DNA of 46,839 bases, counting the filler, from Jimgerdemannia flammicorona (taxonomy: Eukaryota): the NCBI GenBank assembly GCA_003990765.1. It is 2 parts of 2 records of this genome, joined end to end, with 100 filler letters (N's around TTAATTAATTAA, not from the genome) between each part and the next. Parts side by side here need not be neighbours in the genome. Positions count along the whole stretch, not along the records: positions 23,472 to 46,839 come from RBNJ01001115.1; 1 more part is not named here. One strand, given 5' to 3'. The translations under genes and the position numbers were made by a program. Shown piece by piece: positions 6,999-46,839 of the stretch (positions within the stretch are counted from its first letter, which is position 1; each line of letters begins with the position of its first letter). The notes beneath the pieces were generated by a model, which was not told where the DNA came from, made no database searches, and saw only the letters and a list, made by a program, of their open reading frames with translations.

Positions 6999-7405
6999 GT
7001 CCCTTGGACTCCGTCTTTATTACCAGTCTATGAATAATTATACAGTATCACCACCCATTAACCAATCCCCATCTGGGGGCCCCACCCCACCCCTTCACGT
7101 CTAAAGACCACCCTCTCGCCAACAACTCCAACTTTACCCCCACTCTGCTCACAGATTTTCAACACCAAGCGGCGCCGTTGACCCCCCTGCAGCCTCCAAC
7201 CAAACCACCAGCCCGTCAAGGTATCCTCCATAAGAAACTGCCACCTTGCCAACTGGCTCCCCAAGCTCGGTCGCCTCTCCCCCTCAAATACAAATAGCCA
7301 ATGGCCGGCCAGCCCAACCCAAATCGCCAACGCCCAACCTAACGTGATCCATTCATCCCCTACCCCTCCTATCAATCTATCCCTCAGGTCCTCCCACCTC
7401 AGCAT
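6966..7405 (-). mobile_element. 5'-truncated LINE 3' end with poly(A) tail
   Basis: ORF 7058-7405 (WEDLR...GWALAIWVGLAGHWLFVFE...LVLKICEQSGG...PQMGIG*) is homologous to 27222-27779. AATAAA and a 30-nt A tail (T run 6966-6995) follow. Confidence 0.92.
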
Positions 7406-7965: not shown

Positions 7966-8033
7966 TTTCCTCACCCTGGACCCTCCGTCCCTCCTTCTCT
8001 TCACACCCTTCCTTGCAAACAAACATCCCCCAA

Positions 8034-9676
8034 ATGGCCTCCCAACGTCTTGAGCTCATCTCGTCCCACCTCACCGCTCAGCCTACGGCCTCCTCAAATG
8101 TCACAAGGATCGGTGCCAAGAGCCCCGACGACATCGTCATCGTTTCCGCTCTCCGCACTCCCATCATCCGTGCGCGGAAGGGTCCCTTCAAGGATACCCT
8201 CCCTGAAGGTACGTTATTTATGCGAATCGAAGGAGAGAGCTGTTCCGTTATGTAGGAACCAGTTGGGAAATAATGGTAAAAAAGAAAAGAAAGAAAGCAA
8301 GAAAGGAAACTGCGTAGAGGGTGGCTTTTTCCTCTGCCGTATTCTTGTGATTTCTCCAATTGACGATGCTCCAATTTGATCCACAGAGCTTCTCGCTGCC
8401 GTCCTAAAGGCCACCATCGAAAAGACCGGGATCAAACCCGAACTGGTCCAAGATATTGCCGTCGGTAACGTCCTCCCTCCCGGAGGTGGTGCCAGTGCTG
8501 CCCGCATGGCCGCTCTCTACGCTGGTTTTCCAGAGAGCACCGCCATCAACACCGTCAACCGCCAGTGCTCCTCGGGTCTGCAGGCCACAGTTCAGATCGT
8601 CACTGCCATTCAGACTGGTTTGATTGATATTGGCATTGGCGCCGGGGTGGAAAGCATGACCACTAACTACGGTGCCGCTGCACTGGGCAACACCTCCGAG
8701 AAGATTGCTTCTGCGAACCAGGCTGCTGCTGACTGTCTCCTACCCATGGGGTATGCATTTATTTGTTGTATCATTTGGCTGAAGTGGGCACATGGACCAA
8801 CTCGCGAAATCGTTTACATCTTGTTCCCCTTATAGCATCACGTCTGAGAACGTTGCCGCCGATTTTGGCATCACCCGTGATAAGCAAGACACCTTCTCTG
8901 CGCGCTCCCACCACCTCGCCTCCGCCGCCCAAAAGGCCGGTCTTTTCAACGCCGAGATCATCCCCGTTACCACTACTGTGCTCGACAAGGACGGCAAAGA
9001 GGTCACCGTCACCGTCGATAAGGACGACGGTATTCGCGAGGGTGTCACCTCCCAGTCGCTATCCAAACTTAAACCCGCTTTCTCAGCAACAGGTACCACC
9101 ACTGCCGGTAATGCCTCTCAGGTCTCGGACGGTGCTGCTGCAGTCCTCCTCATGAAACGCGCCACCGCCGAAAGGCTTGGTTTGCCCATCCAGGGCAAGT
9201 ACATCACCTCGGCGGTCGTCGGTGTGCCGCCTAAGATTATGGGTGTGGGTCCGGCGTACGCTATCCCGATTGCCCTCGCCAAAGCTAACATCAAGGTGTC
9301 GGATGTGGACATTTTTGAAATCAACGAGGCGTTCGCTTCGCAGGCCGTGTACTGCGTTGAGAAGCTCGGCATTGATATCAACAAGGTGAACCCTAAGGGT
9401 GGTGCTATCGCCTTGGGTCATCCTCTTGGTAAGTAACAATCGTCGGCTTGTTGTAAACCGGAGCATGGGAATCACTTTGGTTATCAATATATACTGTCAT
9501 TTTTCGAACGAAAGCAACTCACCACTATCAAACATATCGAATCAATAGGCGCTACTGGTGCACGTCAGATCGCCACCCTCCTCACTGAGCTCAAGCGCCA
9601 AAATAAGCGTGTTGGCGTTACTTCTATGTGCATAGGTTCGGGCATGGGCATGGCTGCTGTCTTTGAGCGCGAGTAG
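8034..9676 (+). CDS. POT1: Peroxisomal 3-ketoacyl-CoA thiolase, 419 aa; exons 8034-8208, 8387-8750, 8836-9428, 9549-9676
   Basis: Three GT..AG introns join an uninterrupted 1260-nt frame. N-terminal PTS2 RLELISSHL (RLx5HL). Thiolase motifs NRQCSSGLQA (catalytic Cys), FEINEAFA, GGAIALGHPLGATG and SMCIGSGMGMA. Confidence 0.96.
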
Positions 9677-12600: not shown

Positions 12601-12771
12601 AACCCCAAACCACTACGAGGAACACCCATCCCTCCCCCCTCAAACCCTCTCAACCATCCAGCCCCCCTCCCTGATTTCCGACCTGTGCCACCTCTCCCCT
12701 TCCCCCTCCCTGTCTTCCGAGAAACCCTTGTTTCCAAACCTCCGAAGCAGCAGCAGCAGCAGCAGCTCAAC

Positions 12772-15700: not shown

Positions 15701-15860
15701 GGAGGATGATAGCGAGGTATCAAAAATTCTCCGAGATGACGAGGAGAGACGGCGTAAAGCTGAATCGGAAAGGAGGAAGCGTGAGCGGGAGCGTGAAGCC
15801 GTACCAGTAATTCCGGACGATTGGATGGAGCGATTGGACAGGAATTTTGATAAGTTGTAG
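12772..15860 (+). CDS. Ankyrin-repeat + DIL (Dilute) domain protein, ~956 aa; exons 12772-13411, 13537-14246, 14340-15860
   Basis: Introns GTAAGT..GCAG and GTTAGT..TTAG join three ORFs in frame. Ankyrin repeats DEDGTTPLIYAACFGH and DNFGWSALMWATNNNH. DIL-like segment IIIQVIAQYFHYISCELFNRIL...KALQVRMNISYIEDW...LVQLLQLLQ...LNPIQVKRCVLNYRYE. The start codon is the first ATG of the frame and is not confirmed. Confidence 0.9.
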
Positions 15861-17053
15861 GATATACTGCGGTGCCGATTAAGCCACCAGAACTGAAAAC
15901 CTTCCATGTTGAAAGTTGCCGGAGTGGATGGAAGTATAGCGGAGTGAATTCTATCGGATATATCGCTAATGCGCTATGGTGTCACCGGCCAACACCTTTA
16001 TGGAAGTTGTATTTCCGGTTGTTCCGAGTCGTGACAACGGTGAAGGAACAAGATGCCTGTAAAAGTATATATTTTTATTCCCCTTGAAGATATTGTATTC
16101 GGGATCTTCAACAAAATCAAGTCCTTCATCAGTTTGTCTAGTCGTATTCAACCTTGTTTCCATTTAATCTACATGGTTGTCGCAAAGCGTTTATAGTGTG
16201 CCATAGCTCGTAGTCCTTTATTGTTTGCATTTTATACCTTTCTGTTTGTCACTGCATTTTTGTGCTTCAAATTCGTGTAATTTTCATCTGCTGCAATTTT
16301 CGTAACGAGCCAATTTGTTTTATTTCTCGATTCATGTGCTGGAGTCACAGAGTCACTATGTAGAGGTGAGCGCTCAAATTCCTGGTATTGCCTCCCAAGT
16401 CATAACCCTCTTCCATAGGCTCTCTCTCCCCACTAAAGACTTTCTTTTCTATGATTCCGACTTCCATGTTTGCCCCTTTGGATATTTTGAAGAGATGTGT
16501 GTTTTGGTTATCGCAGCATCGTGCAAATTTGTAGATAATGTATTATCAAATATATCTCGTTTGAAAGCTACATCAATGTCCAAGCTGACTGCATGGATGT
16601 AAGTGTTGGCCAAGATGACAAAGCATTAATATTTTTGCAGGAATATATTTGCCTGTGTTACAGATTAAAGGATACCCTTCAGTCTGTAGGCAAATTTGTC
16701 TGCAAAAAAAGGGAGACTGATTGGCCGTGCCATCTTGCGGTGATACGCGGCCATAATATCAACACTTACACACTCCACTTATTGCAAAGTTCAACATTTC
16801 AGGTATGTCATTTTGATATTCGTAATTTCACTCTTTGCCCAACATAAGGTTTTGGTTTTTCAAACCACTGTAGGCTAATCTCATTTCCCTATTATTATTA
16901 TTATTGGTACCTTTACCCACATGTTTGCCGTTTGCCATTCAACATTTTTAACACCCAAACCAAAAACCCACACGTGTCCATTTCAAAAAAAACCCCCGCT
17001 AAGAATATGGGAAGTTGTTTCCTATCACCAGGTCTGGGTGGCCAAGTACATGA

Positions 17054-17944: not shown

Positions 17945-19341
17945 TGTAATGAGCCAGCAAGAGAAACATACCAAGTCACTATCTGAATTAGTTACTATAA
18001 TTTAACCATATACTATATCAAATATACCAGGCAACCAGAACTACTTTACAATATCAACTTATATAAATAACCCAGATAGGAAACATTACAAATCTTGAAG
18101 GTCACCTTGAGACCTTGAAGATCACCCTGAGACCATGAAGGTCACCCCTTCCCATATATAGTAATCTATAGTTAGCCACATTGTAATAGAACGAACAGAG
18201 GAGACGCGACGGAATGATCACGTGACCCTGCGATAACGTCACAATTGAGTGTGACATACGACGAACGTAACGAACGAGACGTGAACTACACAAACGATGC
18301 AGATAAACGATATCCAGCTTAACCCCAGCAACTGGCGCCACAGCAAATCACTGCAGCAACTGATCATTACCTAACAACAAAGGTCCTGATCACAAAGGAA
18401 GTGATCACAAACTCACCCATAGTACTAAATTAGTCACTTATTCTTAGTCAGAAATTACTATAAATACCTCCAACATTTCATCAGTCCTTGATATAAGAAT
18501 CAAGTCTCCCTCCACACACACACATTCTCCTGAGTTTTAGTAATGACATCTAAGTGACTCTAGTGTTTCTGACTAAACTCCAGAAGTCTAGCCAACTTCT
18601 GCCAAAAGTGAGACTAGTATATAAATCTTACAGACTTAAGTAAACCTCTTATTGAACTTGAATTCCAAGGTGAATTCAGTCTGTGTACAGCAAAGAACAA
18701 GTCCCTTGTAACTGCAGTTATCAAGAAGAATATTGCTACTATAACTACTTTTAAGTAAGTACTTCTTCATACTAAAGACTTCTTAGTATACTTATATATT
18801 AAGTCTCTAAGTAATGTTTTATTTTTCTAATTATCCAAAGAATAAGAGAAGGGTAGAAAGAGAGTTATTACAACTTGATAGCAACAGAATTACTGAGCCA
18901 AAATGGTACTAAGAACATACTCCTGAGAAGTTAGAATAAGACCAATTCTAGATAGAAGTAACTTCAGAACTAACTATGGATTTTCAAGAAACAAATCCAC
19001 AAACCAGAGCCTATCTAGCAATTGCCACTAAGACTAAGTGATACCAGGAAAATACAGACCCAAGGCTACATCAGTTTCTGATTAATAAGATATATAGAGA
19101 TTTATACAAGGTCTTTAAGAACTACCACCTAGGCCTTAGAAATATAAGTAGCTACTATAAATTCTATATCCTTATCCATAACTACATTGGAGTTATTAAG
19201 ACTCAAGAATTTACTACTGCTACTACTTAGGAATTTTAAGCTATATATATCTTAATAGCTTCTTCTGTAGCAAGAACAGTAACTACTGAGTGAATTATAT
19301 CTGATAGATACTATCATACTCCTACTTAAACCTCTTTCTAC

Positions 19342-19344: not shown

Positions 19345-19376
<32 letters not shown>

Positions 19377-20862: not shown

Positions 20863-20896
<34 letters not shown>

Positions 20897-23371: not shown

Positions 23372-23471
23372 NNNNNNNNNNNNNNNNNNNNNNNNNNNNN
23401 NNNNNNNNNNNNNNNTTAATTAATTAANNNNNNNNNNNNNNNNNNNNNNNNNNNNNNNNNNNNNNNNNNNN
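23372..23471. other. Assembly gap with artificial spacer
   Basis: 44 N + TTAATTAATTAA (stops in all six frames) + 44 N = exactly 100 nt. Confidence 0.95.
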
Positions 23472-26400
23472 GATGCAGGGGGCCCAGCAGGTGTGCTTTG
23501 GGGTCCCTGATGTGGCTCAAGGGGGTCAAGTGGTGGCAGTTGGCGAGGATGAGCTGGTGGATGTCCCTGAGGAGGAGTGGGATGAGGCTGCTAGTGTAGG
23601 AGCTGACACCATGATGTTGGATGCAGGGCGACTGGGGACTCTGGGAGGGAAGGAGGTGGGGAACTTGTTGTGGGTACACAAGGTGATGGATAACCTCGCA
23701 GCAGAAGCATTGGGGGAGGTAGACCTGCGGGCAATGCCTGAGGAGCATTGGGCAAGGATCCTGCATGGGGATGGAATGGTGGAAGCACTGAGGGTAGAGA
23801 TTCTGGCGATTTTGCTGGAGGAGGAGGGATATGAGGTTGACAAGGTGAGGAAGGCAGAGCTGGGGGTGGTCGCCACTGAGTGGACAGACTACTGTTAGGC
23901 AGAGCATCGGGGTCTGCAGCTCTGGCAGGAGGCATGTCTGGAGTATCGCAAGGATTTTGAGGAGCATGAGGATGGGGCAATGGTAGAACTTCTGGGAGAG
24001 TTGGAGGCATGGGAAGCTGGGGAGAGGGAACTGGCTGCTGAACTTAACTTGGACTTGGTGCAGGAGAGGCAGGGTGCCGACTTATAGAGGATGGGCTCTG
24101 ATATATATCATTATTCTTTATGAACAGTACAACCAACATTTTTTCCTTGAATGTGAATGGGCTAAGGGGATCTGGGCAGCATAGGAACATTTTTACTTGG
24201 CTCAAGGGATTGGAGGCTGATCTCTTTTTATTGCAGGATATTTGATGTGAGGATGAGGACGATTGGGCAGAGTGGACTAGGGAGTGGGGGGGGGCTGCTG
24301 CTTGGTTTAGAAAGGTAGCAATTCTGGTAAGGAAGGGCAGAGGTGACTTGGGGGGAATCAGGAGCTGGGGCAATCACTTGGTCTGGGGAGATTGGCATCG
24401 GCCAGGGTGGGAATCGGTGAAGGTGGGCTCTTGCTACTGCCCTGCAGCTAGGGGTGAGCAGATTGCATGGATTAGGGGATTGCTGGAGGAGGGTATTCTC
24501 TTGGAGGAAGGGGTCGATGTTCTCAGTGGGGACTTTAATATGGTTCAGGATCAGTGCCTGGACAGAACTTATTGAGGGAGGAGTGCCAGGGGTAGAAGTG
24601 GAGATCTGTATGCATGGGAGGAGGTGAAGATGTTGAGCTCCTTGGGGGATATGGGCAGAATGAGGTGGGGTGATACCAGGGTTTACATGCATTGGGTGAA
24701 TGGCCTGGGCACAAGGATTTACTGGATTCTGATGGCAGAGTGCTGTGGTTCAGATGTTTGGAAGGCATTGAAAGTAGAGTGGTGCCCATGGTCTGATCAC
24801 TGGGGACTAGTGGGGTAGGGGCAGTTTGGGGGGAGTGGAGATGGACCTGGACATTGGTGCCTTAACTCCTCCCTGCTGGCTGAGAAGAGGCTGTGGGACC
24901 TGTGGGTGGAGGACATTCAGGCAAAAGTTTTCATCTGGAAGCATGAGGGTTTGCCTGTGGCTGTCCGCTGGATGAGGTTGAAAGAGGCTGCAAGAGATTA
25001 TTGGGGAGAGGCAGATAGAGAGGCTGGGAGGCAGAGAAGGAGGTGCACGAGGTGTGCTTCCAGTAGGCTGAGGAGACTACAAATGGATTGGGCAGATTTG
25101 CTCACTGTTGTAGGGGTGGAGGATTGGAGGATTGAGAGGGCGAAATTGGAGATAGTGGAACTACAACAGGTGCTGAGGGGATAGGAGGAGACCCATATGC
25201 ATGGCATGGCTGCTAGGCTGTGGTGTCAGGGGCTTGAGGAGGGTGAGTGGCCTACTAGGTACTTATCGAGACTTCTCAAAGCTAAGAGAGTGTGTCATCA
25301 GTGGGATGGGGTCCTGGATGCTGATGGGAATATGGTTCATGGCACGCAACAAATCCTGGGGGTCTTGAAGGAGAGATGGCAGGGTTTGTGGAGTGAGGGA
25401 GAAGGGGGTGTGGATGAGGCAGAGATTGTGAATACACTAGATGAGTGGGGGCCACCGCAGGTTGCTGGACTGAGGGACTTGATCTTACCAGTGCAGGGGG
25501 AGGAGATCCAGAGTGTCCTGGCAGCAACTAAGCTTGGGATGGTGCCAGGGGAAGATGGATTGCCTTGGGACTTCTGGAAGAAGATGGTAAATATCCCTGG
25601 AGTGTTGGGCGAGATGGCTGATCTTTGTGACCATGTCCTTTGGAGTGGTGAGTGGGTTGGAGAGTAGGATCTGGGGCTGGTGGCCTTACTGTACAAAGAC
25701 AAGGGAAGGAGGGAAGACTGGAAGAACTGGAGGCTTATCATGCTTCTGGATATAGACAGGAAGATGGTGACTAAGGTGATTGTCACAAGGCTGCAGAAGG
25801 TTGCCCAACAGGTGCTCGGGGAGGAGCAGAGGGGCTTTGTTGGAGGTAGGCTAATAAGAGATGGGACTGCATGGGTTCATGGTGTTATTGAAGGGGCCCG
25901 GGCCTGTGGACTGGATGGAAGGTTGGTCTTTCTGGACCAGGAGAAGGCCTACAACTGTGTATGGTGGGTGTGGCTGGGAAAGGTGTTGGACCAGATTAGT
26001 GTTCCCCCAACATTTAGGGCCTCTATGTTGAGTCTGCTGGAAAGTAGTCAAGCAGCTCTGATATGTAATGGTCACTGTGGGAGGGCATTTCCCTTGGGCA
26101 GAGGAGTACCTCAGGGGGACCCTCTATCCCCGATTCTTTATGCCCTTTCACTGGAGCTGTTGATGGATAGGATTTACCAGAAGGTAGCAGGGCTCTCTAT
26201 ATATGGTATAGTGTGGAAGGTGGGGGCCTTTGCTGATGATATGGTGGTGGGACTTGGGTCTGTGGCAGATGTAGAGGCACTTCAGGAGACTGTAGAATGG
26301 TATGAGGCTCACTCAGGGGCGAAACTCAACTGGCATAAGTGTGAGACAATGGTGCTAGGGAATGGGGTAGTGGGTGGGGACATCATTGGAACAATTGTCC

Positions 26401-27868
26401 CTACTGGTGAGGTGGTGCGGTATCTGGGCATCTTCCTCTCTGTATATGGGTCTGACTTGCCATGAGTGTGGTGGGAGGGCAGGGTGAAAAGTTGGGGGGA
26501 GGCCCTTTGAGGATGGGGAGGCCGCCATATCTCTCTAGCAGGGCAGGTGTCGATCCTGAATGTATATTGGTTCCCAAAGCTGTGGTATGTGGCATATCAC
26601 CTCAACTTCCCAGCATGGGTGGTGAAGAAGCTGATGAAGGTGGCTAGGGAATAGATTTGGGTGGGGAGGAGGTCCCAGGTCAGTTGGGATACTCTTGCAA
26701 GACTGGTAATCAGGGGAGGTCTTGGCCTGGTGGATTTCCCTAAGAGGCTGCACTGCTTGAGAGCCTGGTGGTTGAAGAGAGCTGTGGAATTGCAGGGCAG
26801 AGGTTGGGTGCCTCTGCTGCAGAAGGTATGGGAGATGTGAACATCCCCCCAAGGGTCCTCAGGAGATCTGCTCTCTTTGGTGGGGCTGAATGGAGTTCAG
26901 AGGCTGCGGTTCAAGGGCTTTTGGTGGGGAGTGGCCGATGGAGCACACCGAATTGGCCTGCGATGGTAGGGTAATGAGGGGGAGGCAGCATGGGAGCCTA
27001 ATATGTGGTGTTGGGATGGACTGCTCCTAGGGGGTACTCCACTGGCTGCGTTCGATATTGGGGAGGGAGTGGAGTGTCAGCAGGGGCTTGGCCAGGACCT
27101 TTGGCCAAGTAGCTTGCAGGTGGTTGGAATTGGAGAGGAGTGGAACTGGGCAGGCATCTGGTCATGGAGTGCTGAGGTATGGAGGTGGCTTCCTCCCAAG
27201 TTCTGAGTGGTATGGTAGCGAATGTTGCAGAGGAATGTCATGCTGAATTTCCACTCAGGGCATTTAGTAGAGGGTGGACAATTTGACTGTGAGGAGTGTT
27301 ATAATGTTGGGCAGGCTGGGGGTCATGTACAGATGCTGGAACATTGCCTGGGAGAGTGTGAGGTCTTGGGGGAATTTTGGGCTGAGATAGGGGATAGACT
27401 GGGTGTGGAGCATCAGCGGGTGGGGGAGGGGGGTCACTGGGAGGACTTAAGATCTTGGCTTGTAGGTGGGGTGGGGGCTAGTTGGCTCACTGTAGGATGG
27501 GTGTTAGCAGTATGGGTAGGTCTGGCAGGCCATTGGCTTTTTGTATTTGAGGAGAGGCAGTGGTTGGGGCTGCATGAGAAGGTGTCAAGGTGGGAGGAGC
27601 TGGTGGGGGATCTGCTGACCAGATGGTGGGTGGGTTGGGGTCCTCAGGGAGGACGACGTCATGGTTTGGTGATGAAGATCTGTGAGCAGAGTGGTGGGAG
27701 GGTGGGGATAGTGTTCGACAAAGTGGTCTTTCACAGGGAAGGGGTAGGGGGGGGGGGCCCCCCTAGGGGGATTGGATAGAGGGTGGGATCATTGTAATTA
27801 TATGGGATAGATGGGTATTAATAAAGGAAGGGAGTCCAAGTGAAAAAAAAAAAAAAAAAAAAAAAAAA
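23472..27868 (+). mobile_element. Near full-length L1/Tx1-like LINE: ORF1 tail, ORF2 24120-27779 (APE endonuclease-RT-zinc finger, ~1219 codons, inactivated by nonsense changes), 3'UTR, poly(A)
   Basis: MNSTTNIFSLNVNGL, GDFN and WSDH (APE). NWRLIMLLDIDRKM, LDQEKAY, GVPQGDPLSP, AFADDM and VRYLGI (RT). CEEC...EHCLGEC (zinc finger). The ORF pieces at 24348, 24624, 24906, 25197, 25680, 27003 and 27222 all share one frame. A tail at 27843-27868. Confidence 0.96.
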
Positions 27869-30800
27869 GTAATTATTCATATAAGAAGAGTTAGATTAAT
27901 TGATAGACCTTAGTATAATTCAACTCTCAGAGAGTCTCTGGACCTTCTCAGTGGTTATTTCAGACAAAAAGAACAGAAACTTATAATTTTGTAGTAATTT
28001 CCAGAAGCTCAACCTAGTGACTATTAAGAATACATATCTCTTGCCAAGGATTAACAAACTGTTAGATATATTGAGTAGTAATATATGGTTCTTAACCTTG
28101 GACCTAAAGAGTAAGTTCTGGTAAATTGAATTGATACCTAAGAATAGACTAAAAATAGTATTCATTATAATATTTAAGCTATATAAGTACTAATGTATAC
28201 TGATAGGCCTATGAATTTACTGGCAATATTTCAATAACTGATAGATCTTATCTTATAGCTATATATCAATAAGTTTATATTAGTCTATATAGATGATATG
28301 TATCATTATATACTTTACAACTTATAAGGAGTATATAGAGTACTTAGTTATGGTAATAGAAGCCTTTTACTAACTAAATCTTATGCTCAACTATAAGAAA
28401 TATTTCTTCATACAAAAACAGATTACATATCTAGGACATATCATCAATGATATCAGAATCCATATAGATCTGGTTAAAATATAATAGGTCAGCACTTTTT
28501 CAGCACCAAGAATCCTTAAGAATATATACTAGTTCCTAGGAATTATGAGGTATTATTGGTAGTTTATACCTAGTTTTACTATAGTAATACTATCTCTTAT
28601 AAGGTTAATCTCTAAGAAGTATGTCTTCATATAGTTGGAGGACATATAGTATATCTTTGAGGAGCTTCAGGATCATCTGATCAAAGTATCTACCCTGGCT
28701 TATCTATGTAATGAGATTTCTTCCATCTTGCAGACAGATACTTTGGACTATATAATTGAGTATATACTCTTCCAGATAGGGATTGATAATCTTGAGCACT
28801 CTATCACTTATATAAGCAGAACTCTAACTAATATAGAGCAGAGATATATAATGATAAAAAAGAAAGAATTAGCAGTTATATAGAATATAGATTAGTTTCA
28901 CTATTATTTGGATACTAATCATCTCTTTATCATACAAACTAATTATATAGCTCTTAAATCTATTCTAGCTATTAAGAAACCCAAGATATATAGAGTACAG
29001 TAGATTGTTAAGTTGATGGCTTACTAGTATACTATTGAACTTTGGCCCAGATAGGTCCACTTAAATACCAATATACTATCTCAATTAATAGAACTTGAAT
29101 CTGAGCAGGAGGATCTGATAGAAGTCTATATGGCTGATAAAGAAAAGATAGAATATGTGAATACTAGATAGACCCCAATAGTATATGATGTAGTTCTTAC
29201 CAGAGTAATCAGCATCACACCTTGCAACCACTATTTAGCTACTCCAATTTAGAGAAAAATAGGAGAAACTACTTAGAAGCTTAAGGTATACTACTTCATA
29301 GATCACCTGTAGACTCTTTGCTATATTAAATATAAGGAAGTCTTATCTCATTCCAATCAGATATCTTCTATAATAGACTATTTCTATGAGATAGTACATT
29401 TCAGACTCAAGAATACCTTATGGGTAGTATAATATAAATATCAGTAGCCAGAAATATTTCAAGATATATAATACTATATTGCCTCTTATAGAACCTATCA
29501 GGCATAAGTCAGCTCAAAACAGTATAAGAAACTAGTATCTATTGAGATAACAGACCTATTTAATAGAGTTGATATGGACTTTATTAGGCTCCTACTTATG
29601 ATAGACTATACTAATATATACATCATAGTCAGTATTGACTATATAACTAAGTGGATTGAGGTCCAAGCCACTATAGACACCACCATTACTACAGCTACCA
29701 GGTTTATATATATATAAAGATATTATTTATTAATATAGTTGTCTGGTAATTTTACAGAGTAACCAGAGAAGTTATTTCATAAGGAATGTTATTAGAGAAC
29801 TAACTGTCCATTATACAAATTCACTACTCCTTATCATCTGCAATCTAATGGCTTAGTAAAATACTTTAATAGGACCAAAAAATCTACTCTAAAGAAGCTT
29901 GTCCTTGAGAATAAAAATAACTGAGATCTATATCTACCTATAGTGCTTTTTGTATATCATATTATAATCCAGACAATGATATATTATTTACTATTCATAC
30001 TTACCTATAGGTAAGAGACTTGGTACCTATTTGGACCCATCATCAGCTTAATTGACAACTATATAAAGAGAGCTCTGGTCAAAGTGATCAATAGACATAT
30101 AGAGGAAATTATACATCTTGACAGTAAGGTATATAAGTAAGTACTAAAGTAAATCAGGAATAAGCAAGTATATATGACAGAAAGCTTAGTATAATGCACA
30201 GAGGGCATGGGGTCTTATCTTGCTATTGATAGAGAGAGATCTAGTAATATTGTATAAAGAAACTACTGGTCTGTGAGAATCTCAGTAGAGAGACCCATAT
30301 ATAGTTAAGATAGTTTATAGAAATGATACATATTAACTCACAGAGGTTGACAGTGTAGATTTAGAGGCTCTCTAATATAGAAATAGGCTTTGGACATATA
30401 TTATAAGAGTGTAGGAACCAGAGATAGATAGGATTAAGTATGGGAAAATAATGAGAAGACTGAGTTTAGAGTAAAATTAAATACTTGCAAAACTGGCAGA
30501 GTGAAATTTCAAGTATAAAGTGATAGCTAGAGAGGAATTTGTAAGTATATAGCAACCTAAAAAATAGAGAAAACTGTATAACCATATATATAGGATAAAC
30601 TGAAACCTACTTAGTGAACTTTTTTTTTTATAAGATATCTTATATTAAAGAACAGGCCATTAGTATATATAAGGTATAGGTGGACCAATATTGATATAAA
30701 AATATATTGTAGCCTTATTTTTCCTTTTTTTGATATTTCAGTACTCTTGTTTCATTTTGCTTTATTTTCTTCTTCTCATCTTTACAGAGAAACTAGCCAT

Positions 30801-31862
30801 TATGACTAACTTCCTATTATGAGCAATTTATCATTCTTTCTCCACCCATGAGACCCTATGACTCTGAGGCCAAGTCTTATACATACCTGTATTCTCCTTT
30901 ATACTTCAAGTAGTCTTTATATTTTCTTTATCTCATCTTTATAATAACAACTTCTTGTATCTATCTCAATCAAGTAAATCTGCTCTGACTAATAAGAATG
31001 AAGTATTTTAGTATTTTGGACTAAAACTCCAACAACCTCCACTTGAAGTCTATTAATATCAGTAGTTTCAGTTAGCTCCTAGAGATCTGGACAGTATTGT
31101 AAATTGGCAAGAAAGGTACTTATGCTGATAGATATATGAAAGAAGACTAGAAAGTAATACCAAGATCTCTCAGATAGACACTATAATACTAATAAAGTAT
31201 AACTCTTATACCTGGGCCTGATGAGAGGAGTTATTTCTCTGGTTCCTAATCTTGGTAATAATATGTAATACAGATAACCAAATAGTAATAACTTTTATTG
31301 TCTTGAACATTCTGGAATAATATATGATAAAGTAGCTATTAGAAGAGTCTCACTATTAAATTTCTAGTATAGTATACTTTGAAGTAGTATATAAAGCATT
31401 AATATTCTATAAGTATTACAAGTAGTCTACTGACTGTACAAAACAAATATATAATGAATATTATAATAAGCATATGAATGAGGAGGTCTTCTGATAGTTG
31501 AAGCATAAGATCTTATATATTTTGAAATAGTATTTGATAGTTAAAATATCTATAGAGAATATTCTTCAGTTTCTAGACAATGAATAAGATATATTCTTAG
31601 AAGAACAACTATATACTAGAGACCTCAATAAGCTTGTAATTCTTAATAAAGATCTGGCTGACTTTGACTCATGCCCTGGTATTCTCTAGCCTCTTCATTA
31701 TCTGAGGTTAAAAGACAGATCTCTTGATGCTAGATAATCCCCAATTACTATGCCTTCAATGCTTTTTCCACCAGTTAGGCCTTTTGGTATCCCTAATAAT
31801 CCATCAGTATTATCTATAGGATGAGTCAAAAAAAAAAAAAAAAAAAAAAAAGAGAGGGTAAA
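27869..31862 (+). mobile_element. Decayed Ty3/Gypsy pol (RT-RNaseH-integrase, ~27870-30410), 3' extra region and polypurine tract
   Basis: SIIQLSESLWTFSVVISDKKNRNL*FCSNFQKLN...YLLPRINKLLD...TLDLKSKFW*I (RT). DMDFI...SIDYITKWIE and TTPYHLQSNGLV (integrase), in RT-RH-IN order. A(n)GAGAGGG PPT-like tract at ~31828-31858; a probable 3' LTR begins at ~31863. Confidence 0.88.
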
Positions 31863-32309
31863 TATAAAGGCATATATCTAGAAATTGATATATCCTAACA
31901 GATAAAATTCTTATATAACTCTACCATTGGCCATTAATGGAAGAAGTCTGCTGTGAGTTATTATGTGCTTCTTCTATAAGAATTACTTAGAGAAAGCTTA
32001 TATATTATAGTAGAATTATCTAGCAAATATCAAGAATATATATAAATAATAAAAAATTAAGAATGACAATAAAGCAGTTCTGGAATCTTAAATAAGTATA
32101 CATATATTGTCAAGGATTGGATATCTAAGGAATATTACATATTAGATCACTTTTTAGACTTTCCTGATAGTCTTTAGATATATTTCTTAGTAAAAATTCT
32201 TAGTAAACTCATCTATATATCTCTAATAAATTCTTTCTATATTAACTATACTCTATTTATAACTATTTTCTTATTGATAATTCTTGTATAATCTTTATAA
32301 GTATTGATA

Positions 32310-32629
32310 TAGAGATCTCAAATAGCTGGCCATATGGCCAATGACTGGTCAGAGTGGCTCAATCTTAAATTTACAGCCAACTAACCTTAAATTTAGTCTT
32401 ACCAGCTAGCCAATCTATAAATTTAAGGCTGAGCTACTCTATTTCAGTCTTAAATTTATAGCCAACTAATTAAGTGACATTTATAGACCTTTTATTTAAT
32501 TTGGAAAATTTAGAAATCAAAATAGCCAAATAAGATCTAACTACTTAGTCAACTAGCCAAATTATAAATTTTAAGATCAAGCTACTCTGGCCAGCTATTG
32601 GCTATATGGTCAGCTATCTGGGATCTCTA
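32310..32629. mobile_element. hAT-type MITE, 320 bp
   Basis: ~60-bp imperfect TIRs, TAGAGATC...GATCTCTA. The 8-bp flanks TATTGATA and CATTAATA both derive from CATTGATA by single transitions. An 8-bp TSD is the hAT hallmark. Confidence 0.85.
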
Positions 32630-33721
32630 CATTAATATAGTTATATATAAGCTACATATAAGTCACAAATTATCAAGATATAATAATTTCAATAATATTA
32701 TTTTGAGCACCACTAGTTTCATAATGGTTTATATTTAGAAAACTTAAACAATTTTACAGTAGGAGATAGATAGAAATATAGAGTACAATATTCATCTATG
32801 TATGTGAATTTGTCCTCTATATAGTATATTAAATTAAAGTATGTCAGTATTACTTAGATGATTAGTGACAGTAATATATCATCATTACAACTGACCAAAA
32901 TCAATCCAAAAGACTAGACCAATGAAATATATTGGTATAACAACTCAATATACTAATATATAGCCTTATGTTATTTTATCAGATTTATATCATTTATCAG
33001 TAATACAGAGAAATAGGCAATCTATACAACTTTAATAAAATTGCCCTCTTTCATAATAAAGATTATGAGTTCTACTAGTACTAAGTGGCTATAGCAAAAC
33101 ACTTCTTTAAAATACACTATGCTAGAAATATCAGATGACTAGTCTAGTAATATAAGATATACCAATCATGTATATTCCAGTAATGACAGTTTGCACTATA
33201 GATATAACTACAACAATAGATATGGGAAACATAGTCCCAGTTATTAGCATAAATACAATCAAAAGGTCCATCTCAATCTTCAATAGAAGAGACTATGCCA
33301 TTTGGATATTCTATATGATAAATCTCCTTGACAAATATAGCTTAGCAGAGTATATAAAGCCATAAGCACTAATTTAAGATTATGACATTATAAACAATTG
33401 CTAAGTATTATATGAGATTATATTTATATTATCAAACTTATAAATAAAGCTCATAATATATACTATAATAGCTCATAATATATGAGAGATTCTATATACT
33501 CATTATATGCAAGTATCTACATCCAATTGATTTTATCTAAAATCTCAATTATTCAATATACAAATGAAGCTCAAGAAGAGTATCTATGAATATACTAATC
33601 ATATTGATGATCTGGTAAATCAAGTGAATTCTCTTAGTACATCTATAGATTATATTAGTAATGAAGATAAGGTTATAGCACTCATAAGGGGACTTCTAGA
33701 TATGTATAATATTGTTATCAC

Positions 33722-34063
33722 TAGTGCTCCCAAAACGAATATTCGAATCAATTCAGAGTGGATATATATGGTATTTAAATTGAATTGATTCAATTCAATT
33801 TGAATATTGTTTTGATTTCCAAATTAGAATACAAACATTTTCCTCAATAACTTCATGAGTTTTCATCTAATTTTGATAAAACTAGTGTCATTGGAAAGCA
33901 CTCTATAATGGCTTTCCAATGACACCAAGGTTACCGAAATCAGATAAAAGCTCATGGAGTTATTGAGGAAAACGTTTGTATCCTAATTTGGAAATCAAAA
34001 CAATATTCAAATCGAATGAAATCAATTCAATTCAAATACCATATATATCTGATTCAAATATTC
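33722..34063. mobile_element. Foldback/MITE-like palindromic insertion in Copia gag
   Basis: Arms of ~160 bp (33737-33899 and ~33911-34063) are near-perfect reverse complements around an ~11-nt loop. The left end is TAGTGCTCCC; the matching right terminus is missing. Confidence 0.85.
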
Positions 34064-36797
34064 ATTACAGTAAGTATAGACATAGGAAACACCATTGTTA
34101 TAGTTGAGAAAATGATAAGAAGAGTGGTGAAAATAAGCAACAATATGAAAAAAGTCAATACTGGTAATATTGGAGTAGCAGAAGAACTATCAAGAGAAGC
34201 ATAGTAATATAAACACTATTGAAACTGATAAAAGTGATAATCTATTTTTTGTACAAGCTACCAGTTCTACTACTAATACTAGTTCTACTAGTGTAAGATC
34301 TACTACATCTATGAAATCTAATCAGAAGAATGATAATTTTGGACTATAAAGTCTTATTAAATCTACTGCCAGCACTAGCTCTATCAGTATGAGACCTATA
34401 TCTATGAGCAGTTCTATTACTGTTAAATCCACCAATCTGATATCTAAAACCAGTTAGCAAAACACTTTTGAGTAGATGAAAAGTAGTAATAATATCAGTA
34501 CTACTAACAACCATATATCTGCTAGTAGTAAATCTGTCAATATAGCTGATGATAATAATATCTGATTAATGGATTCTGAAGTTATATAATATATAATGCT
34601 ATATAGAGAATAGTTCTCTATATATAAGTCTTTTGAATATTCTGTATCTATCAAATTAGAAAACACCAATATCATCTATGTTCAAGAAAAGAGAAATATA
34701 GAGATATATTTCAATGAAAATATCATCAAGCTCACTACTAGTCTTGGGGACATACTGTATACTTTAGAGATAGGAAAGAACTTCTTCTCTATAAATAAAA
34801 TAATAGTCCATAGTAACAAAGAAATATATATATATATACAAAAAATACTACTACATATAACTTATATAATAATAAGCTAATAACAGCTTTGAAATATAGA
34901 AATCTTTATACAATTAATGATATATCAAATAGAAATAGCATAAAAGTCTCTACTTATATAACAACTATATCTAATATATTTAATATATAGTATCAATGCT
35001 TAGGATATATTAGCAAGATGAGTCTCAAACATATGATAAGAAGTGACTTGGTAAGTAGATTGTCAGCATATATATATTTAGAAGATAGCTTTTGTAAGAT
35101 ATATATAGAAAACAAAGCTTTCTAGTAACTATTTGAAGAACAATTAAAACATGCCTTAGAGATCCTCAATCTAATCTATATAGATATATATAGCCTAATG
35201 TATACTCTATCATATTCCAGTAAGAGATATTTTCTGATATTTATTAATAATCATATATATAAAGCATATGTATATTTCCTATCAGCAAAGAATAAAGCCT
35301 TAAAAAAATTCAAAGAATTCAAAGTGATTACTGAGAATGAAACAGAATATAGAATATATAATATGTACTTAGATAATAGATATAAATATATCAATAATAT
35401 ATTTAGAGAATTCTTAATAAGATATAGCATAAGCTATCAAATGATAGCTCCTTATATACCTTAGAAAAATAGTATAACTGAGTGATTTAACCATATAGCT
35501 ATCAAAATAGTACAGATAATGATCAATACTGCTAGATTAGGACATTCCTATTAGGCTAAAGCTATCAATATGCATATATTTATAATTAGTACATTTCTCA
35601 ATTACTAAGTAAGAATTCTAGCAATATGTATTCCAGAGATGCTGATCTTATCTCTGAAGAATTATGGAGTAAAATAAAGCTAGATATATATATATTTAGA
35701 TACAATATATATATCCTTAATAAAAATAATATTAATTAGTATAAATTCAAACCAAAGGTAGTTAAGTACATACTTTTTAGATATAGCAGAAAATTATATA
35801 GACTTTGGAATCTACATATGAAATATATAGTGATTTTACATAATGTATAGTTCAGAGAAAAAGAAAAAAATAATAAGATCTATATAAAAGTCTTAGTAGA
35901 AATCTCTATATTTTAGTTAGTACAATAACTAGCATTAATAATATCTCTGATAATTCCAGCAGTAAATCAAAATTATTTTTAACCACTATATATATCTAAG
36001 CTAGAGTTGTCTGAGCCAAGAATTACTAAGATCAAAGATGATGATAGTGAATTCTCCAATAATGAGGAATCTTTCATTAAAGACAAAAGTAAGCAAAAGT
36101 CAAAGTATAAGCTCAGGAACAAGATATATTTAGAATTAGAAAGTTATTAGGATATGCCAGTAAGCTCTAGATAACAGTAATATCAAGACTACATGAGCTA
36201 TACCAAAGCATACAAATGTATATATATCATAATATCTAATGAGCTAAATATATACAATAAAGCTATAAGCAATACTGATAACAAAAAAATAGCAATGTAT
36301 AATAGATGAGAAATATGATTTGCTTATTGAGAATGGTATTTGAGATCTAGTACTCCTTCTGCCAAATTATTAAGCAATTAGATCCAAGTAGGTCTATAGA
36401 ATTAAGCATAAGAGCAATAGAAGTATAGAGTAGTATAAAGCTCATTTTGTTACCAAGAGTTATTTATAAGATTATAGTATAGACTATAATGAGATATTTT
36501 TGCCAATATTCAAGCTTACTTTACTTAGAATACTCCTTGTAATTGACATAGTATATAACCTTGAAATCTATTAAATAGATATAAAGACAGCATTTTTAAA
36601 TAGTAACATAGATACCAAATTATATATCTATCAACTATAAGAATATAAACTATATAATAGCCCAAATAGTAAACTCTTATGAAAATTATACAAAGGACTA
36701 TACAGCATCAAATAAGTGGCATAGTTATGAAACAAAAGAGTTGATAAACATCTTCTTGACAATGAGTTCACATATTATAAAGTAGATAATTATATAT

Positions 36798-37240
36798 TGT
36801 GATATATGGTATGAAATCGAAATAGAGAATAGACACTTGATTGCACCCAGTCCCAAAGTAGTATAGTCTTATAGTTAGCAGTCCTTGATTTCGACATTAT
36901 CTAAGTTTTTTTAGATATTATCCAAATCGAACATCCTGATTTAGTATAGTATTTAGACATTGTCCAAATATTTTGACAAAGTCCAAATGACTCATTTATT
37001 ACTTAGCCACCCTCTCATAGCTAGTAAACTTATATAAATAACCCAGTATCTTCAAGTGAATAAACCTCAGATTGAAAGTATTAGAAAAAGAACAAGTATA
37101 CTGATAAAAGGACCTTTGGGATTACCTCTTTAAAAACACATTTGACCTTAAGGAACTACTGACTCTGGGAGTCAAGAAGACAAGAATTCAAGATAAAGAA
37201 ATCTGACATACTTGCCCATCTTAGCATCCACTACATTACA
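36798..37240. mobile_element. Solo LTR (443 bp) inserted in the Copia RT
   Basis: TGTGAT...ATTACA termini and a 4-bp TSD ATAT. Copia RT reads ..VDNYIY before the insert and resumes ..IVFISI*VDNII (YVDD-equivalent) after it. Confidence 0.85.
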
Positions 37241-38546
37241 ATATATATCTAGTATTATAGTATTTATTAGTATATAGGTTGATAACATAATCATAATTAC
37301 TAGTAGAAATAGACTTAATAGAGTTAAAGAAGCCCTATACTGAGAATTCAAGATAACTGATATAGATAATATATCTTTCTTTTTAGTAATATTGATTATA
37401 TATGATAGAAATATATACATATACCATATATCTCTCACAAGAAACATATGCCAAAGCCATCCTCAAACACTTCAATGTGAATGAATATAAGTCAGTCAGC
37501 ACTCCTATAAATACTTTTGTAAAGTTAAGGAAGCCAAATACCATATCTAAGAATAATGACAATAAGAATAATATCAAAAATATTCTCTATTAGCAAGTGG
37601 TCAGCTCTCTTATATATCTCATACTAGGAATAAGACTCAATATATCATACTCTATAAATAAGATAGTGCAGTATTCCTCCTACTATAATAATTTACATTG
37701 GAGTATTATTAAGAGGATTTTCCAATACTTAAAGAAATTAGTATACTATATGCTTATATTGGGTGATAACATTAGATTAAGCAGGAGAAATAGCAAAAGC
37801 AACAGCATCCAGCTATCTAGGGCATATACATAATACCAATTGGATCAGAGACTTGGATGATCACTGATTTATGACTAGATATCTCTTCCATATTGGTAAA
37901 AATGATAAAGGATCTGTAATCTTATAATAAATATATAAGCAATCTTCCTTTGCAATATCATCTATATAAGCTGAATATCAGGCTTTATCATTGGTAACAA
38001 AGGAAGCCATATGGCTCTGCAAATTATTAAAGGAGCTCAGCTTTATGCAAGAAAGTACTATACTATACCAAGATAACCAGTCTATAATTGTACTCATCAA
38101 GAATCCAGTATATTACAGTAGAATAAAACATATCAATATACAATATCATTTCATTTGCAAATACATAGAAAATGGTGCAATATACCTGAAATACATCCCC
38201 ATAAAGTATATAATTGCAGACTCATTGACTAAAGCCCTTCCAAAGTCAAAGTTCAAGCAATGCACTAAAGGAATGAGTCTTACAAGCTATACATTAACTA
38301 TGGGACAATTTTCAGGCTATCAAAAGCCTCTCATACCATCTATGCATCTAACTTCTACATTGGTTACATCCCTTATCTACGAGTGGGTTACAGTGCTTTT
38401 CTGTGGGTATTTTCGGATATTTCATATATTTTGAAATACTTTTCGACCCACGAAAATTCTTTAGATATAGGATTTCTAGTTCTTTGGGTTATATGCAGTT
38501 CTAGTTTTTTTTGCATGTGTTTTGCATTGCTTTTTATTCTAGTTTG

Positions 38547-38600
<54 letters not shown>

Positions 38601-40714: not shown

Positions 40715-41547
40715 TGGGTTGACAGCTGGACCCATTTATCTATGTGGCTGGACACACTACCCGTGATGTTTCACCAAAATTCCCTTATCTACTATGCGAC
40801 ATGAGTCAAATAGCCATAAACAAAACCGATGTCATGACATGCATCTATTGTAAAGTAGGGTTGTTTATGGCCATTCGACTTGTGTTGCATAGTATGGTGA
40901 CGCCTTTAAGTAAAATTATCGCAAGGTAACCTGTCAAGCCTGAAAAATTTTCCTTGTTTACTTCCAACGGATTGGGATAGCCTGAATGCACAGAATTCTG
41001 AGATCTGCAATATAGCCACTGGTCACATCACACAATCTGTTGCTATGGTAGCACGTCACACATACTCGGCCACCTTGGTATGTCGGTGACTGTAAGTTCG
41101 ATTCCGTTGAGTAGATTGGCGTTGGGCAGGCAGTACAGTAGCAGAAGATCTAGATGACGTGTAAGCTTTCCGACGAATTTTATTATGATACATCACAAAA
41201 TCCTGGTACAATACATTGCGTGCCTTTGAGTACACTTAAGTATATACATGTGTACATAAAATATGCCATGTATATACATGTGACGTGACTTATGATGTAT
41301 GCAACGATTTCACTTCAGCGGCCGACCCAGATGGCTGAGCCCAACCCAGTATGACTTGGCCTGGTCCAGTGTGCGTAGGGCCGGCAGAATATGAAATTCA
41401 GGAGAATTATTAGGGAAATAATATGGGAATCATTATCTGTTTCATATTTCATGAGTTGAGGTCAGGTCTGTTTGTGATATAGGTTTCCTTCAGGCCAGGT
41501 TTGCCTCAGGCCAGGTTTGGCCTCAGGTTTGGTCAGGTATTAGCCTT

Positions 41548-41712
41548 GGGTTGGGTATGATCTGGGTCAGGTTTGGCCTCGGGTCAGGTATGATTCAGGT
41601 TGAGTTTAGCCTTGGGTTGCATATGATTCAGGTTGGGTTTGGCCTTGGGTCAGGTTTGCTTCGGATCAGGTTTGGAGACGGGTCAGGTATGATTCAAGTT
41701 AGGTTTCACCTC
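41548..41712. repeat. 5 x 33-bp degenerate minisatellite (GGGTCAGGTATGATTCAGGTTGGGTTTGGCCTY), with further partial units from ~41480
   Basis: Units start at 41548, 41581, 41614, 41647 and 41680. Variants (CAGGT/TGGGT/CGGGT) are consistent with decay of CGGGTCGGGT, a motif typical of DNA-transposon subterminal repeats. Confidence 0.85.
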
Positions 41713-45402: not shown

Positions 45403-46630
45403 ATATGTCGGAACAGTGTGAAGCATTGTATGCAGCTGTGCGATTGAATCAAGTTCATACCCTGTGCATGTTTGTCATCCATCCCCTGTTCGTGTTTAGG
45501 GAACAGTATCGACCACGAGGATGCGCCTTAGCCGAGTCTCTGACCTTGACCACGCTGAATCTAGAAAGTATGTCTCAACTTCGTGATATCTTGTGTGCAG
45601 CTGCGCGATGGAATCAAGCTCACGATCTGTGCGCGTTTTCTCATCCACCCATTGTTCATGTTTAGGGAACAGCATCAACAGAGAGGGGGCATGTGCCTTA
45701 GCCAAGTCTCTAAAGCAGAACACGACCTTGATCATGCTAAATCTCTACAGTGTGCCAGAACTGTGTGAAGCATTGTGTGCAGCTGCATGATGGAATCAAT
45801 CTCACGATCTGTGCATGTTTGCTCATCTATCTCTTGTTTATGTTTAGAAGCAGAACACGACTTTGACCACGTTGAATCTCAGAGGTATGTCAGAACTGTG
45901 TCAAGCATTGTGTGCAGCTGCGTGATGGAATCAAGTTCATGACCTGTGTGTGTTTGCTCATCCATCCCCTGTTTATGTTCAGACAACAGCATTGGCGAAG
46001 AGGGGGCCATGCGCCTTAACCAAGCAGAACACGGCCTTGACCACGATGAATCTCTCCTGTATGTCAGAACTGTGTGAAGAATTGTGTGCAGCTGCACAAT
46101 AGAATTAAGCACACGATCTGTGCGTGTTGGTCCATCGTCTCCTGTTCATGTTTAGGGAACAGCATTGGCCACGAGGGGCATGCGCCTTTGCTGAGTCTCT
46201 GAAGCAGAACATGATCTTGACCACGCTGAATCTTGAAGGTATGTCAGAACTACGTGAAGCAGCATGTACAGCTATCCAATAGAATCAAGCACACACAATC
46301 TGTATATGGTTGCTCCTCCATCCCTTCATATTTAGGAAACAGCATCAGCTATGAGAGAGCACATGCGTTAGCCGAGTCTCTGAAGCAGAACATGGCTTTG
46401 GTCACGCTGAATCCCGAAGTATGTTGGAACTGCATAAAGCATTGTGTGCAGCTGTGCAATGGAATCAAGCTCATAATCTATATATGTTTAGTCATCCATC
46501 TCTTGTTCATGTTCAGATAACCACATCTGCTATAAGGGAAAAAGCACTCTAGTCATGTCTCTGAAGCAGAACATGACCTTGACCTGCTGGAACTCTAAGG
46601 TATTTTGTGGCTGTATGAAGTATTGTGTTT
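45403..46630 (+). pseudogene. Tandem array of 7 intron+exon units, each exon one 28-aa RI/NLRC3-type leucine-rich repeat; mostly frameshifted
   Basis: Exons: 45500-45567 (68 nt), 45666-45749 (84), 45848-45884 (37), 45983-46058 (76), 46156-46238 (83), 46336-46418 (83), 46517-46599 (83). They are separated by mutually homologous 97-98-nt GTATGT...TTTAG/TTCAG introns. Consensus peptide xNSIGxEGAxALAESLKQNxTLTTLNLx. Confidence 0.9.
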
Positions 46631-46807
46631 AGATATATATATTATTAATAAATATATCATCAATCTTTACATTATCAATAATATGTAAAAATGTATTATT
46701 AGAGTATCAATAAAAACAATTTCTGTTTTTTCAGAACTCCAGAATCCCAATAAAAGGTTATAAGTCCCACTAATATTAGTGGTTAAATAGTTAAGAAAAA
46801 ATACCTC

Positions 46808-46839
<32 letters not shown>

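Follow-up and report, generated by a model that had tools for sequence, protein, structure and literature searches.

The 46,839-nt stretch of Jimgerdemannia flammicorona DNA analysed here (hereafter the window; assembly GCA_003990765.1, two parts of two records joined through 100 filler letters, with positions 23,472 to 46,839 derived from RBNJ01001115.1) carries at 45403-46640, on the plus strand, a tandem array of seven head-to-tail units, after which an eighth intron begins. A unit consists of a 97-98-nt GT..AG spacer and an exon coding for one 28-residue leucine-rich repeat (LRR) of the ribonuclease-inhibitor type (RI-type). We consider it probable, at roughly 80%, that this array is a pseudogene relic, i.e. 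the remaining LRR part of a member of an RI-type (Pfam LRR_6-like) LRR gene family of a Mucoromycotina fungus. Judging from the sequence alone, this copy most probably makes no protein.

The units were cut by hand at the GT and AG sites and then aligned with MAFFT, which gave lengths of 165, 182, 135, 174, 180, 180 and 181 nt, the eighth intron contributing a further 41 nt. Tandem Repeats Finder detected, within 45713-46470, a period of 180 (3.5 copies, score 537) and a period of 135 (2.0 copies), and a BLAST comparison of the window with itself returned offset self-matches of the array down to E=1e-136. An nhmmer profile of the seven units matched exactly these seven at E<1 and no other part of the window; the profile was built from the same units, which makes the search circular for these seven and informative on further copies, none of which were present in the 46.8 kb. 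When up to 3 mismatches are allowed, the intron core motif occurs five times, whereas 100 shuffles predict 0.00 occurrences. The spacers measure 97, 98, 98, 98, 97, 97 and 98 nt. GT is present at seven of the eight spacer starts, in the form GTATGT in five of them, and AG at all seven ends (TTTAG five times, TTCAG twice).

The array opens exactly with the first base of an intron, abruptly after AT-rich DNA. This first intron copy (45403..45499, 97 nt, acceptor TTTAG) has a mutated donor, ATATGT, and the exon that follows (45500..45567) is only 68 nt long owing to two internal deletions that together remove 16 nt; it also contains a TAG in the LRR frame. Intron copy 2 (45568..45665, 98 nt, GTATGT...TTTAG) precedes the sole exon that has kept the 84-nt, phase 1-1 form (45666..45749). 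Translated in phase 1, this second exon codes for NSINREGACALAKSLKQNTTLIMLNLY, a 28-residue RI-type LRR. Intron copy 3 (45750..45847, 98 nt) has GTGTGC as its donor and TTTAG as its acceptor, and in exon copy 3 (45848..45884) the first 47 nt are deleted, leaving 37 nt that code for KQNTTLTTLNLR. Intron copy 4 (45885..45982, 98 nt, GTATGT...TTCAG) is followed by a 76-nt exon (45983..46058) with a 1-nt insertion and a 9-nt deletion, which shift the frame. Exons 5, 6 and 7 are one base short each, at 83 nt: exon copy 5 (46156..46238, after intron copy 5 at 46059..46155, 97 nt) has lost one nucleotide in a G run and changes frame internally, while exon copy 6 (46336..46418, after intron copy 6 at 46239..46335, 97 nt) retains an open LRR frame, NSISYERAHALAESLKQNMALVTLNPE, and has lost its last base, so that the phase is broken. 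The seventh unit, the most AT-shifted one and without a single CpG, comprises intron copy 7 (46419..46516, 98 nt, acceptor TTCAG) and an exon with a degenerate LRR, NHICYKGKSTLVMSLKQNMTLTCWNSK (46517..46599). Finally, the first approximately 40 nt of an eighth intron copy (46600..46640, GTATTT...) fade into AT-rich DNA, which leads to a poly-T run at the window end.

The original prediction had described this region as seven units with 97-98-nt introns, each exon being a symmetric 84-nt phase-1 module for a single 28-residue RI-type LRR, and had regarded exon and intron as having been duplicated together. The first point is confirmed by Tandem Repeats Finder, MAFFT, nhmmer and the self-BLAST. 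The description of the exon is the right reading of the array, with the predicted form surviving in one of the seven copies. As had also been claimed, the introns are about as similar to each other as the exons are: pooled pairwise identity is 77.5% (1572/2028) in the intron columns and 74.2% (988/1331) in the exon columns, and joint duplication of exon and intron is supported.

RI-type LRRs are defined as repeats of 28-29 residues with the pattern LxxLxLxxN/CxL...G..a..L...L (Methods of PMC6642158). Exons 2 and 6 follow this consensus, and the intact relatives P0001 and P0039, described below, fit it better. The exon border always falls within or directly beside the beta-strand, after LNLx and before G-N-x-I-G. 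P0001 scores 19.7 bits against LRR_6, below the cut-off of 23.4 (a single repeat is too short to pass), and the multi-repeat relatives P0002, P0003 and P0004 reach 222-321 bits. P0039, which has two intact exons, matches the PDB chains 5irl/5irm, which we take to be NOD2, as well as ribonuclease inhibitor (1dfj/1a4y/1z7x).

When the 67-aa open reading frame (ORF) around exon 2 was compared with a database of 5.8 billion proteins, the sole match was P0001 (E=2e-6; 9 candidates scored). P0001, P0008 (87% identical to P0001) and P0039 are ORFs of a soil protein catalogue that read straight through introns and carry intact exons such as DNSIGHEGARALAESLKQNTTLTSLNLE. The layout of P0039 is intron, GNSIGDEGACALAESLKQNTTLTSLNLEG, intron, DNSIGSEGARALAEFLKQNTILTSLNLES, intron. 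Residues 1-20 of P0001, an intron-coded part, are 75% identical to the translation of 45591-45650, within intron copy 2, and the CAMESSSRSVRV stretch of the intron-coded part of the soil ORF recurs in the same window unit. As homologous introns accompany intact exons in all three ORFs, the exon-plus-intron unit exists elsewhere with intact exons, which agrees with the expectation of the original prediction that it would not be restricted to this locus. The cassette family seems to be alive elsewhere. The nearest named LRR belongs to P0006, a partial protein of J. flammicorona, which starts with a near-identical LRR, DNSIGDEGARALAESLKQNTTLITLNLKE, and is 65% identical over 34 aa to 45665-45766.

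An exhaustive HMMER search with P0001 as the query retrieved 5783 proteins at E<=0.001; those inspected (eight fetched, and three scanned against Pfam) are multi-repeat LRR_6-type proteins or read-through ORFs. Local BLAST grouping covered the best 150 of the 5783. Among these 150, 22 share the approximately 600-aa conserved N-terminal region of the Mortierella alpina 'RNI-like' proteins, a region with no Pfam match and no usable match in the ESM Atlas, and 14 share a NACHT-type N-terminus with P0003. Five of the NACHT-type proteins were looked up, and the two named clusters found in this way are coral NLRC3-like (Acropora, Montipora); the NACHT-LRR matches are no evidence for fungal NACHT-LRR proteins. 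Within the set P0002-P0156, 24 of the 155 proteins (P0002, P0004, P0009, P0015, P0026 and 19 more) belong to the family that combines the 'RNI-like' N-terminal region with RI-type LRRs.

The same design was found in environmental DNA. A protein-pattern scan of Joint Genome Institute (JGI) metagenome contigs yielded 70 loci, which were screened with a motif of our own design (AG, 84 nt with an open phase-1 frame fitting the LRR pattern, followed by GT or GC). At least two such exons, spaced 34-620 nt apart, are present in seven of these 70: L003 has 12, L006, L007 and L036 have six each, and L001, L005 and L035 have two each. Most of the other loci consist of contiguous 84-nt repeats without introns. 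In L001 and L005 neighbouring introns are visibly homologous to each other, while the nucleotide sequences of L003 and L007 repeat in tandem, the period being 136-145 nt in the former and 152 nt in the latter. None of the 70 loci was matched by any of the seven window introns in BLASTN, and the nhmmer profile of the window unit gave matches at the exon level only, with a weak extension into the pyrimidine tract. A 22-nt intron DNA pattern with 3 degenerate positions had no match in the JGI metagenomes.

The most informative of these loci is L007 (positions 1-1010, 32% GC), composed of six 152-nt units. Its six 84-nt exons are all intact, and its spacers of 68 nt are not a multiple of 3, therefore only GT-AG removal keeps the frame. 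The L007 introns are 98.5% identical and the exons 86.9%, and 27 of 37 exon differences affect the first or second codon position, the differences being concentrated within residues 1-12 of the repeat. This is the opposite of the pattern in the window array; L007 looks live, and its pattern suggests either diversifying selection, by which the exons are driven apart, or homogenisation of the introns. An exon near-identical to that of L007 is carried by L016. In L005, the reading frame immediately preceding the LRR exons codes for ankyrin repeats and is separated from these exons by an in-frame TGA; in detail, the segment 40-1763 consists of a 409-aa ankyrin ORF, the TGA, ankyrin-like sequence and the 84-nt LRR exons with their mutually homologous introns. 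This arrangement suggests an ankyrin-LRR gene, possibly itself disabled.

In contrast to L007, the window copy bears the marks of decay. Its seven units have drifted approximately 23-26% apart. In the MAFFT alignment every insertion or deletion is private to a single unit, therefore the units were intact when they were copied. Differences from the column consensus amount to 31/170, 21/171 and 27/172 at codon positions 1, 2 and 3, respectively, i.e. the array exons show no excess of third-position substitutions. Since the exons are no better conserved than the introns and this excess is missing, coding sense has been unprotected since the units diverged. The possibility, raised in the original prediction, that the array is a relic is thus correct for this copy, with six of the seven exons broken and no flanking exons present.

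The substitutions themselves are strongly biased. The units depart from their consensus at 168 places, 124 of them by a transition, and 95 of these transitions run from GC to AT (50 C>T and 45 G>A) versus 29 in the reverse direction. CpG sites account for 36 of the 95 GC-to-AT changes, even though the 180-nt consensus has only 10 CpG, and 28 changes lie at CpA/TpG, sites 3.4 times commoner than CpG in the consensus. The observed/expected (o/e) ratio of CpG is 0.53 in the array (TpG 1.63, CpA 1.52), 1.0 in the thiolase and ankyrin-DIL genes at 8-16 kb, 0.14 in a reverse-transcriptase relic of the long interspersed nuclear element (LINE) type and 0.04 in an AT-rich block at 28-38 kb. The array decays like the repeated DNA of this genome, and deamination of methylated CpG is the probable cause of the CpG loss. 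Repeat-induced point mutation (RIP) was considered for the TpA-rich units 6 and 7 and is disfavoured: CpG took 36 changes as against 28 at the commoner CpA/TpG sites, which fits CpG deamination better. In the comparison of 8000-16000 with 24000-38000, the genes keep their CpG and repeated DNA appears to lose it almost wholly, as in the 10-kb AT-rich block (28% GC).

The array stands by itself as a fragment amid DNA that is poor in genes and rich in repeats. Both of its flanks are AT-rich and without an open frame. The window has 91 ORFs that reach 90 aa; a Pfam scan covered 36 of these, the longer non-overlapping ones being chosen, and no domain was found among them from 27 kb to the array, i.e. 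over approximately 19 kb upstream. No match outside the array was obtained in the window by tblastn with the NACHT region of P0003, the Mortierella-type N-terminal region of P0002 or the non-LRR tail of P0006. Framing of the array by a transposon was rejected, as no transposon termini and no long direct or inverted repeats surround it.

Based on these observations, we propose that in living members of the family every LRR of 28 residues would reside on its own 84-nt exon between phase-1 introns of approximately 98 nt. Exon and intron would be copied together, presumably by unequal crossing-over, so that neighbouring introns would be homologous. Because of this homology, LRRs could be gained and lost in frame, unequal crossing-over between introns adding or removing whole repeats, and the skipping of a phase 1-1 exon would also keep the frame. 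The array would have been built up to at least seven units, after which function and flanking parts would have been lost. Neutral decay since then would have left the private indels and the CpG-enriched GC-to-AT transitions, as in the nearby retroelement relics. Splicing at the predicted GT/AG sites is likely, given the conserved GT and AG and the intact arrays with spacers that are not a multiple of 3. Structured intron RNA was also considered and ruled out, as the four introns subjected to RNA folding folded no better than shuffles (z +0.8 to +1.6).

Several observations weigh against the interpretation of the array as a pseudogene of a once functional LRR gene. The LRR frame is open across the full length of three of the seven exons (2, 6 and 7), and the window ends 200 nt past the array, so that gene parts beyond 46839 are possible. 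The ORF around exon 2 (45587-45787) matches no Pfam family at E<=0.01, and a profile of the seven decayed exon peptides gave one weak match in the PDB, a GALA LRR protein (E=9e-4). Moreover, amplification of a fragment that was dead beforehand would likewise leave introns and exons equally diverged. The first two of these points would suit a live gene, in which alternative splicing passes over broken cassettes and links the usable exons with others located past the window end or a long way upstream. Skipping of symmetric phase 1-1 exons without a frame shift has been shown for human LRR exons of NOD-like receptors (NLRs) (PMC6642158), and GT and AG are retained at seven of eight intron starts and seven of seven ends. 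We nevertheless regard a live gene as very unlikely, given that only one exon keeps the phase-preserving length of 84 nt, that there is no third-position excess of substitutions and no better conservation of exons than of introns, that no coding exon or domain was found in the 19 kb upstream and no open frame in the AT-rich flanks, and that the CpG o/e of the array is 0.53 versus 1.0 in the neighbouring genes.

An alternative that shares the relic state of the array with our interpretation holds that amplification came after the death of the gene: a fragment of one or two units, captured by repeat-rich DNA or left behind in it, would have expanded as a 182-bp satellite, by replication slippage or unequal exchange, and would never have been a seven-LRR coding array. 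The equal divergence of introns and exons, the start at the first base of an intron with no flanking exon, and the domain-free setting of approximately 19 kb with retroelement relics (a reverse transcriptase, RVT_1, at 25668-26462) and dispersed repeats are all in keeping with such a history. It is, however, unlikely: the disabling indels are all private, which means that every duplication started from an undamaged unit; other arrays of this design have intact exons, which makes a functional origin simpler; and the array has no transposon termini or long repeats around it. The remaining alternative, in which the LRR resemblance arose by chance in a non-coding tandem repeat and the 'introns' are a mere part of the unit, is effectively refuted. 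It could draw on the missing Pfam match and the weak PDB match noted above, but the P0001 match (E=2e-6) spans both exon-coded and intron-coded parts, the Jimgerdemannia protein P0006 starts with a near-identical LRR, the inspected proteins among the 5783 retrieved with P0001 are LRR_6-type or read-through ORFs, and the repeat borders coincide with GT/AG and with the exon borders of the intact arrays L001, L003, L007 and L036. The pseudogene relic of an RI-type LRR gene is therefore the interpretation that we retain.

The array works like known LRR exon-cassette systems, yet it belongs to none of the named families. In human NOD/NLRC and NLRP genes, a frame-preserving logic of one-LRR exons is documented (Hoss et al. 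2019, PMC6642158). The window array shares with animal NOD/NLRC genes the RI-type 28-residue LRR, the placing of one LRR on each short frame-preserving exon and the exon border fixed in or next to the beta-strand. It differs in having no adjoining NACHT or other nucleotide-binding domain, in its fungal host, in its approximately 98-nt mutually homologous introns and in being a dead copy. Neither NACHT nor NB-ARC was detected by Pfam in the scanned window ORFs, nor was either found by tblastn with the P0003 NACHT region, and because there is no nucleotide-binding domain the array is not an NLR. NACHT or NB-ARC was likewise not found in the loci with the cassette design.

In Tetrahymena, LRR genes have exons of exactly 90 bp and phase-2 introns, and exon and intron are repeated as a unit; three exons contribute to one 30-aa repeat, and the arrays are associated with a LINE-like element (Xiong et al. 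2019, PMC6564038). Common to that system and the window array are an exon-plus-intron repeat unit detectable at the nucleotide level, an intron length characteristic of each array, a retroelement-rich setting (here a LINE-type reverse-transcriptase relic 19 kb from the array) and unequal crossing-over as the proposed mechanism. On the other hand, the present exon has 84 nt, is in phase 1 and holds a whole LRR, instead of 90 nt, phase 2 and three contributing exons, the host is a fungus and not a ciliate, and no direct contact with a retroelement was observed for the window array. With its 84-nt phase-1 exon in place of a 90-nt phase-2 one, the array is not a member of the ciliate family. The LRR-ROCO genes of the brown alga Ectocarpus place one 24-aa LRR of the plant-specific type on each 72-nt exon, with 'phase 0' pairs and ROC-COR domains, and inactivated exons and pseudogenes are common among them; arrays with a joint exon-intron repeat unit are documented there as well (Zambounis et al. 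2012, PMC3341825). Both systems have symmetric exons that hold a single LRR, exons that were duplicated or shuffled, and inactivated exons. The window exon differs from the algal one in length (84 nt, 28 aa), LRR type (RI) and phase (1-1), and the Pfam scan of the 36 window ORFs detected neither Roc nor COR; owing to these differences in domain, exon and LRR type the array is not of the algal LRR-ROCO family.

The closest named full-length LRR relatives are the 'RNI-like' proteins of Mortierella alpina (P0002, P0004, P0009 and P0015), of which P0002 and P0004 are 63% and 62% identical, respectively, to the LRR of P0001. They come from the same phylum, Mucoromycota, and contain 8-12 LRR_6 stretches of the RI-type by Pfam, but neither the window nor any of the 70 loci contains their approximately 600-aa N-terminal region. 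The repeat arrays of Dikarya NLRs presumably diversify when units of high similarity recombine. These NLRs combine NACHT or NB-ARC with WD40, ankyrin, TPR or HEAT repeats; the window array differs in its LRR repeat and in having no linked nucleotide-binding domain. According to PMC10197012, fungal NLR-like proteins use mainly WD40 and TPR repeats. The accessible text of PMC12258605 includes LRR profiles in its NLR definition, pairs N-NACHT in fungi only with HEAT repeats and mentions no LRR-bearing fungal NLR. Fungi are described in PMC2939053 as lacking LRR pattern-recognition receptors, and PMC10507103 reports that Glomeromycotina and Mortierellaceae have genes with LRRs which their endobacteria acquired from them.

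We found no literature on LRR exon-cassette arrays or LRR-type NLRs in Mucoromycota, although the supplementary tables of PMC12258605 (S9) and PMC10507103 may list LRR-bearing proteins; the texts of PMC12574304 and PMC11134847 contain none of the words 'leucine', 'LRR', 'NLR' or 'NACHT'. The one-LRR-per-exon cassette design is real and, in fungi, apparently unreported. A Mucoromycotina fungus probably once held RI-type LRR arrays that follow the modular plan known from animal NOD/NLRC genes and in which the introns were duplicated too; such arrays apparently persist in its relatives.

The original prediction went further and saw in the array a relic or a part of a modular, diversifying LRR system of non-self recognition. 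Its architectural part and the relic option stood, whereas the active recognition system and the link to NLRs did not. Nothing supports a working role of the array in non-self recognition. Nor does it read as a functional protein-coding gene: six of the seven exons are phase-broken or contain stops, no flanking exon is present and the codon positions carry no signature of selection. The domains named in that prediction as possible N-terminal partners, i.e. NACHT, kinase, ROC/COR and HeLo, were not found adjoining the array or its close relatives.

It might also be supposed that Endogonales-like Mucoromycotina, and probably other soil eukaryotes, hold a living, undescribed repertoire of RI-type LRR genes built from such cassettes, with near-identical introns serving as recombination tracks and exons driven apart by selection. 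We consider this rather unlikely, even though L007 (introns 98.5% and exons 86.9% identical, 27 of 37 changes at positions 1 and 2) shows the pattern expected of it. If true, it would mean an LRR-based diversifying recognition system, using the animal NOD/NLRC design of one LRR per exon, in a kingdom said to lack LRR receptors. The combination of a 98-nt intron and an 84-nt exon offers a handle for finding living members, the domains attached to them and their diversification. The window copy, which would have no function of its own, is useful as a marker and as a record of the CpG-biased decay of repeated DNA.

As regards the remainder of the window, Pfam identified a thiolase (8380-9433), an ankyrin and DIL domain gene (12496-15857) and a reverse transcriptase (RVT_1, 25668-26462, E=4e-28). 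The best named relatives of the ankyrin-DIL ORF are from Umbelopsis isabellina (51%) and then from many Mucorales (41-46%); matches in Glomeromycotina and Mortierellomycotina are weaker or partial, and those in Dikarya lower still. In the ESM Atlas this ORF matched only eukaryote DIL-domain clusters, with scores below 0.9. These matches, with Umbelopsis and Mucorales at their head, support the assumption of the original prediction that the host is a fungus outside Dikarya. They point to a member of Mucoromycotina that is not closely related to Umbelopsis or Mucorales, and the LRR match with P0006 would place it possibly near Endogonales.

The reverse transcriptase at 25668-26462 lies in a block of 52% GC (24000-28000) with a GC skew of 0.42-0.47 and represents a LINE-like relic, pieces of which recur at 6971-7371 (71% identical, opposite strand). 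Open frames at 37396-38434 presumably resemble the C-terminal part of a Ty1/copia-type polyprotein; Pfam gave no match for 37970-38431. A tandem repeat with a 33-nt unit (5.3 copies, 72% matches) occupies 41496-41706 and overlaps a 16-nt periodicity. Two runs of 44 N each (23372-23415 and 23428-23471) fall within a repeat that is also present at 18290-18897 (72% identical, opposite strand). Among the homopolymer runs of the window, one (27860-27807) belongs to a repeat with a second copy at 487-538. Pure poly-T stretches 26-51 nt long occur on the plus strand at 433-470, 6966-6995, 9759-9788, 13441-13466, 19345-19373, 20866-20896, 38549-38599 and 46813-46839, together with one poly-A run at 27843-27868, a density of homopolymer runs that is unusual for 47 kb.

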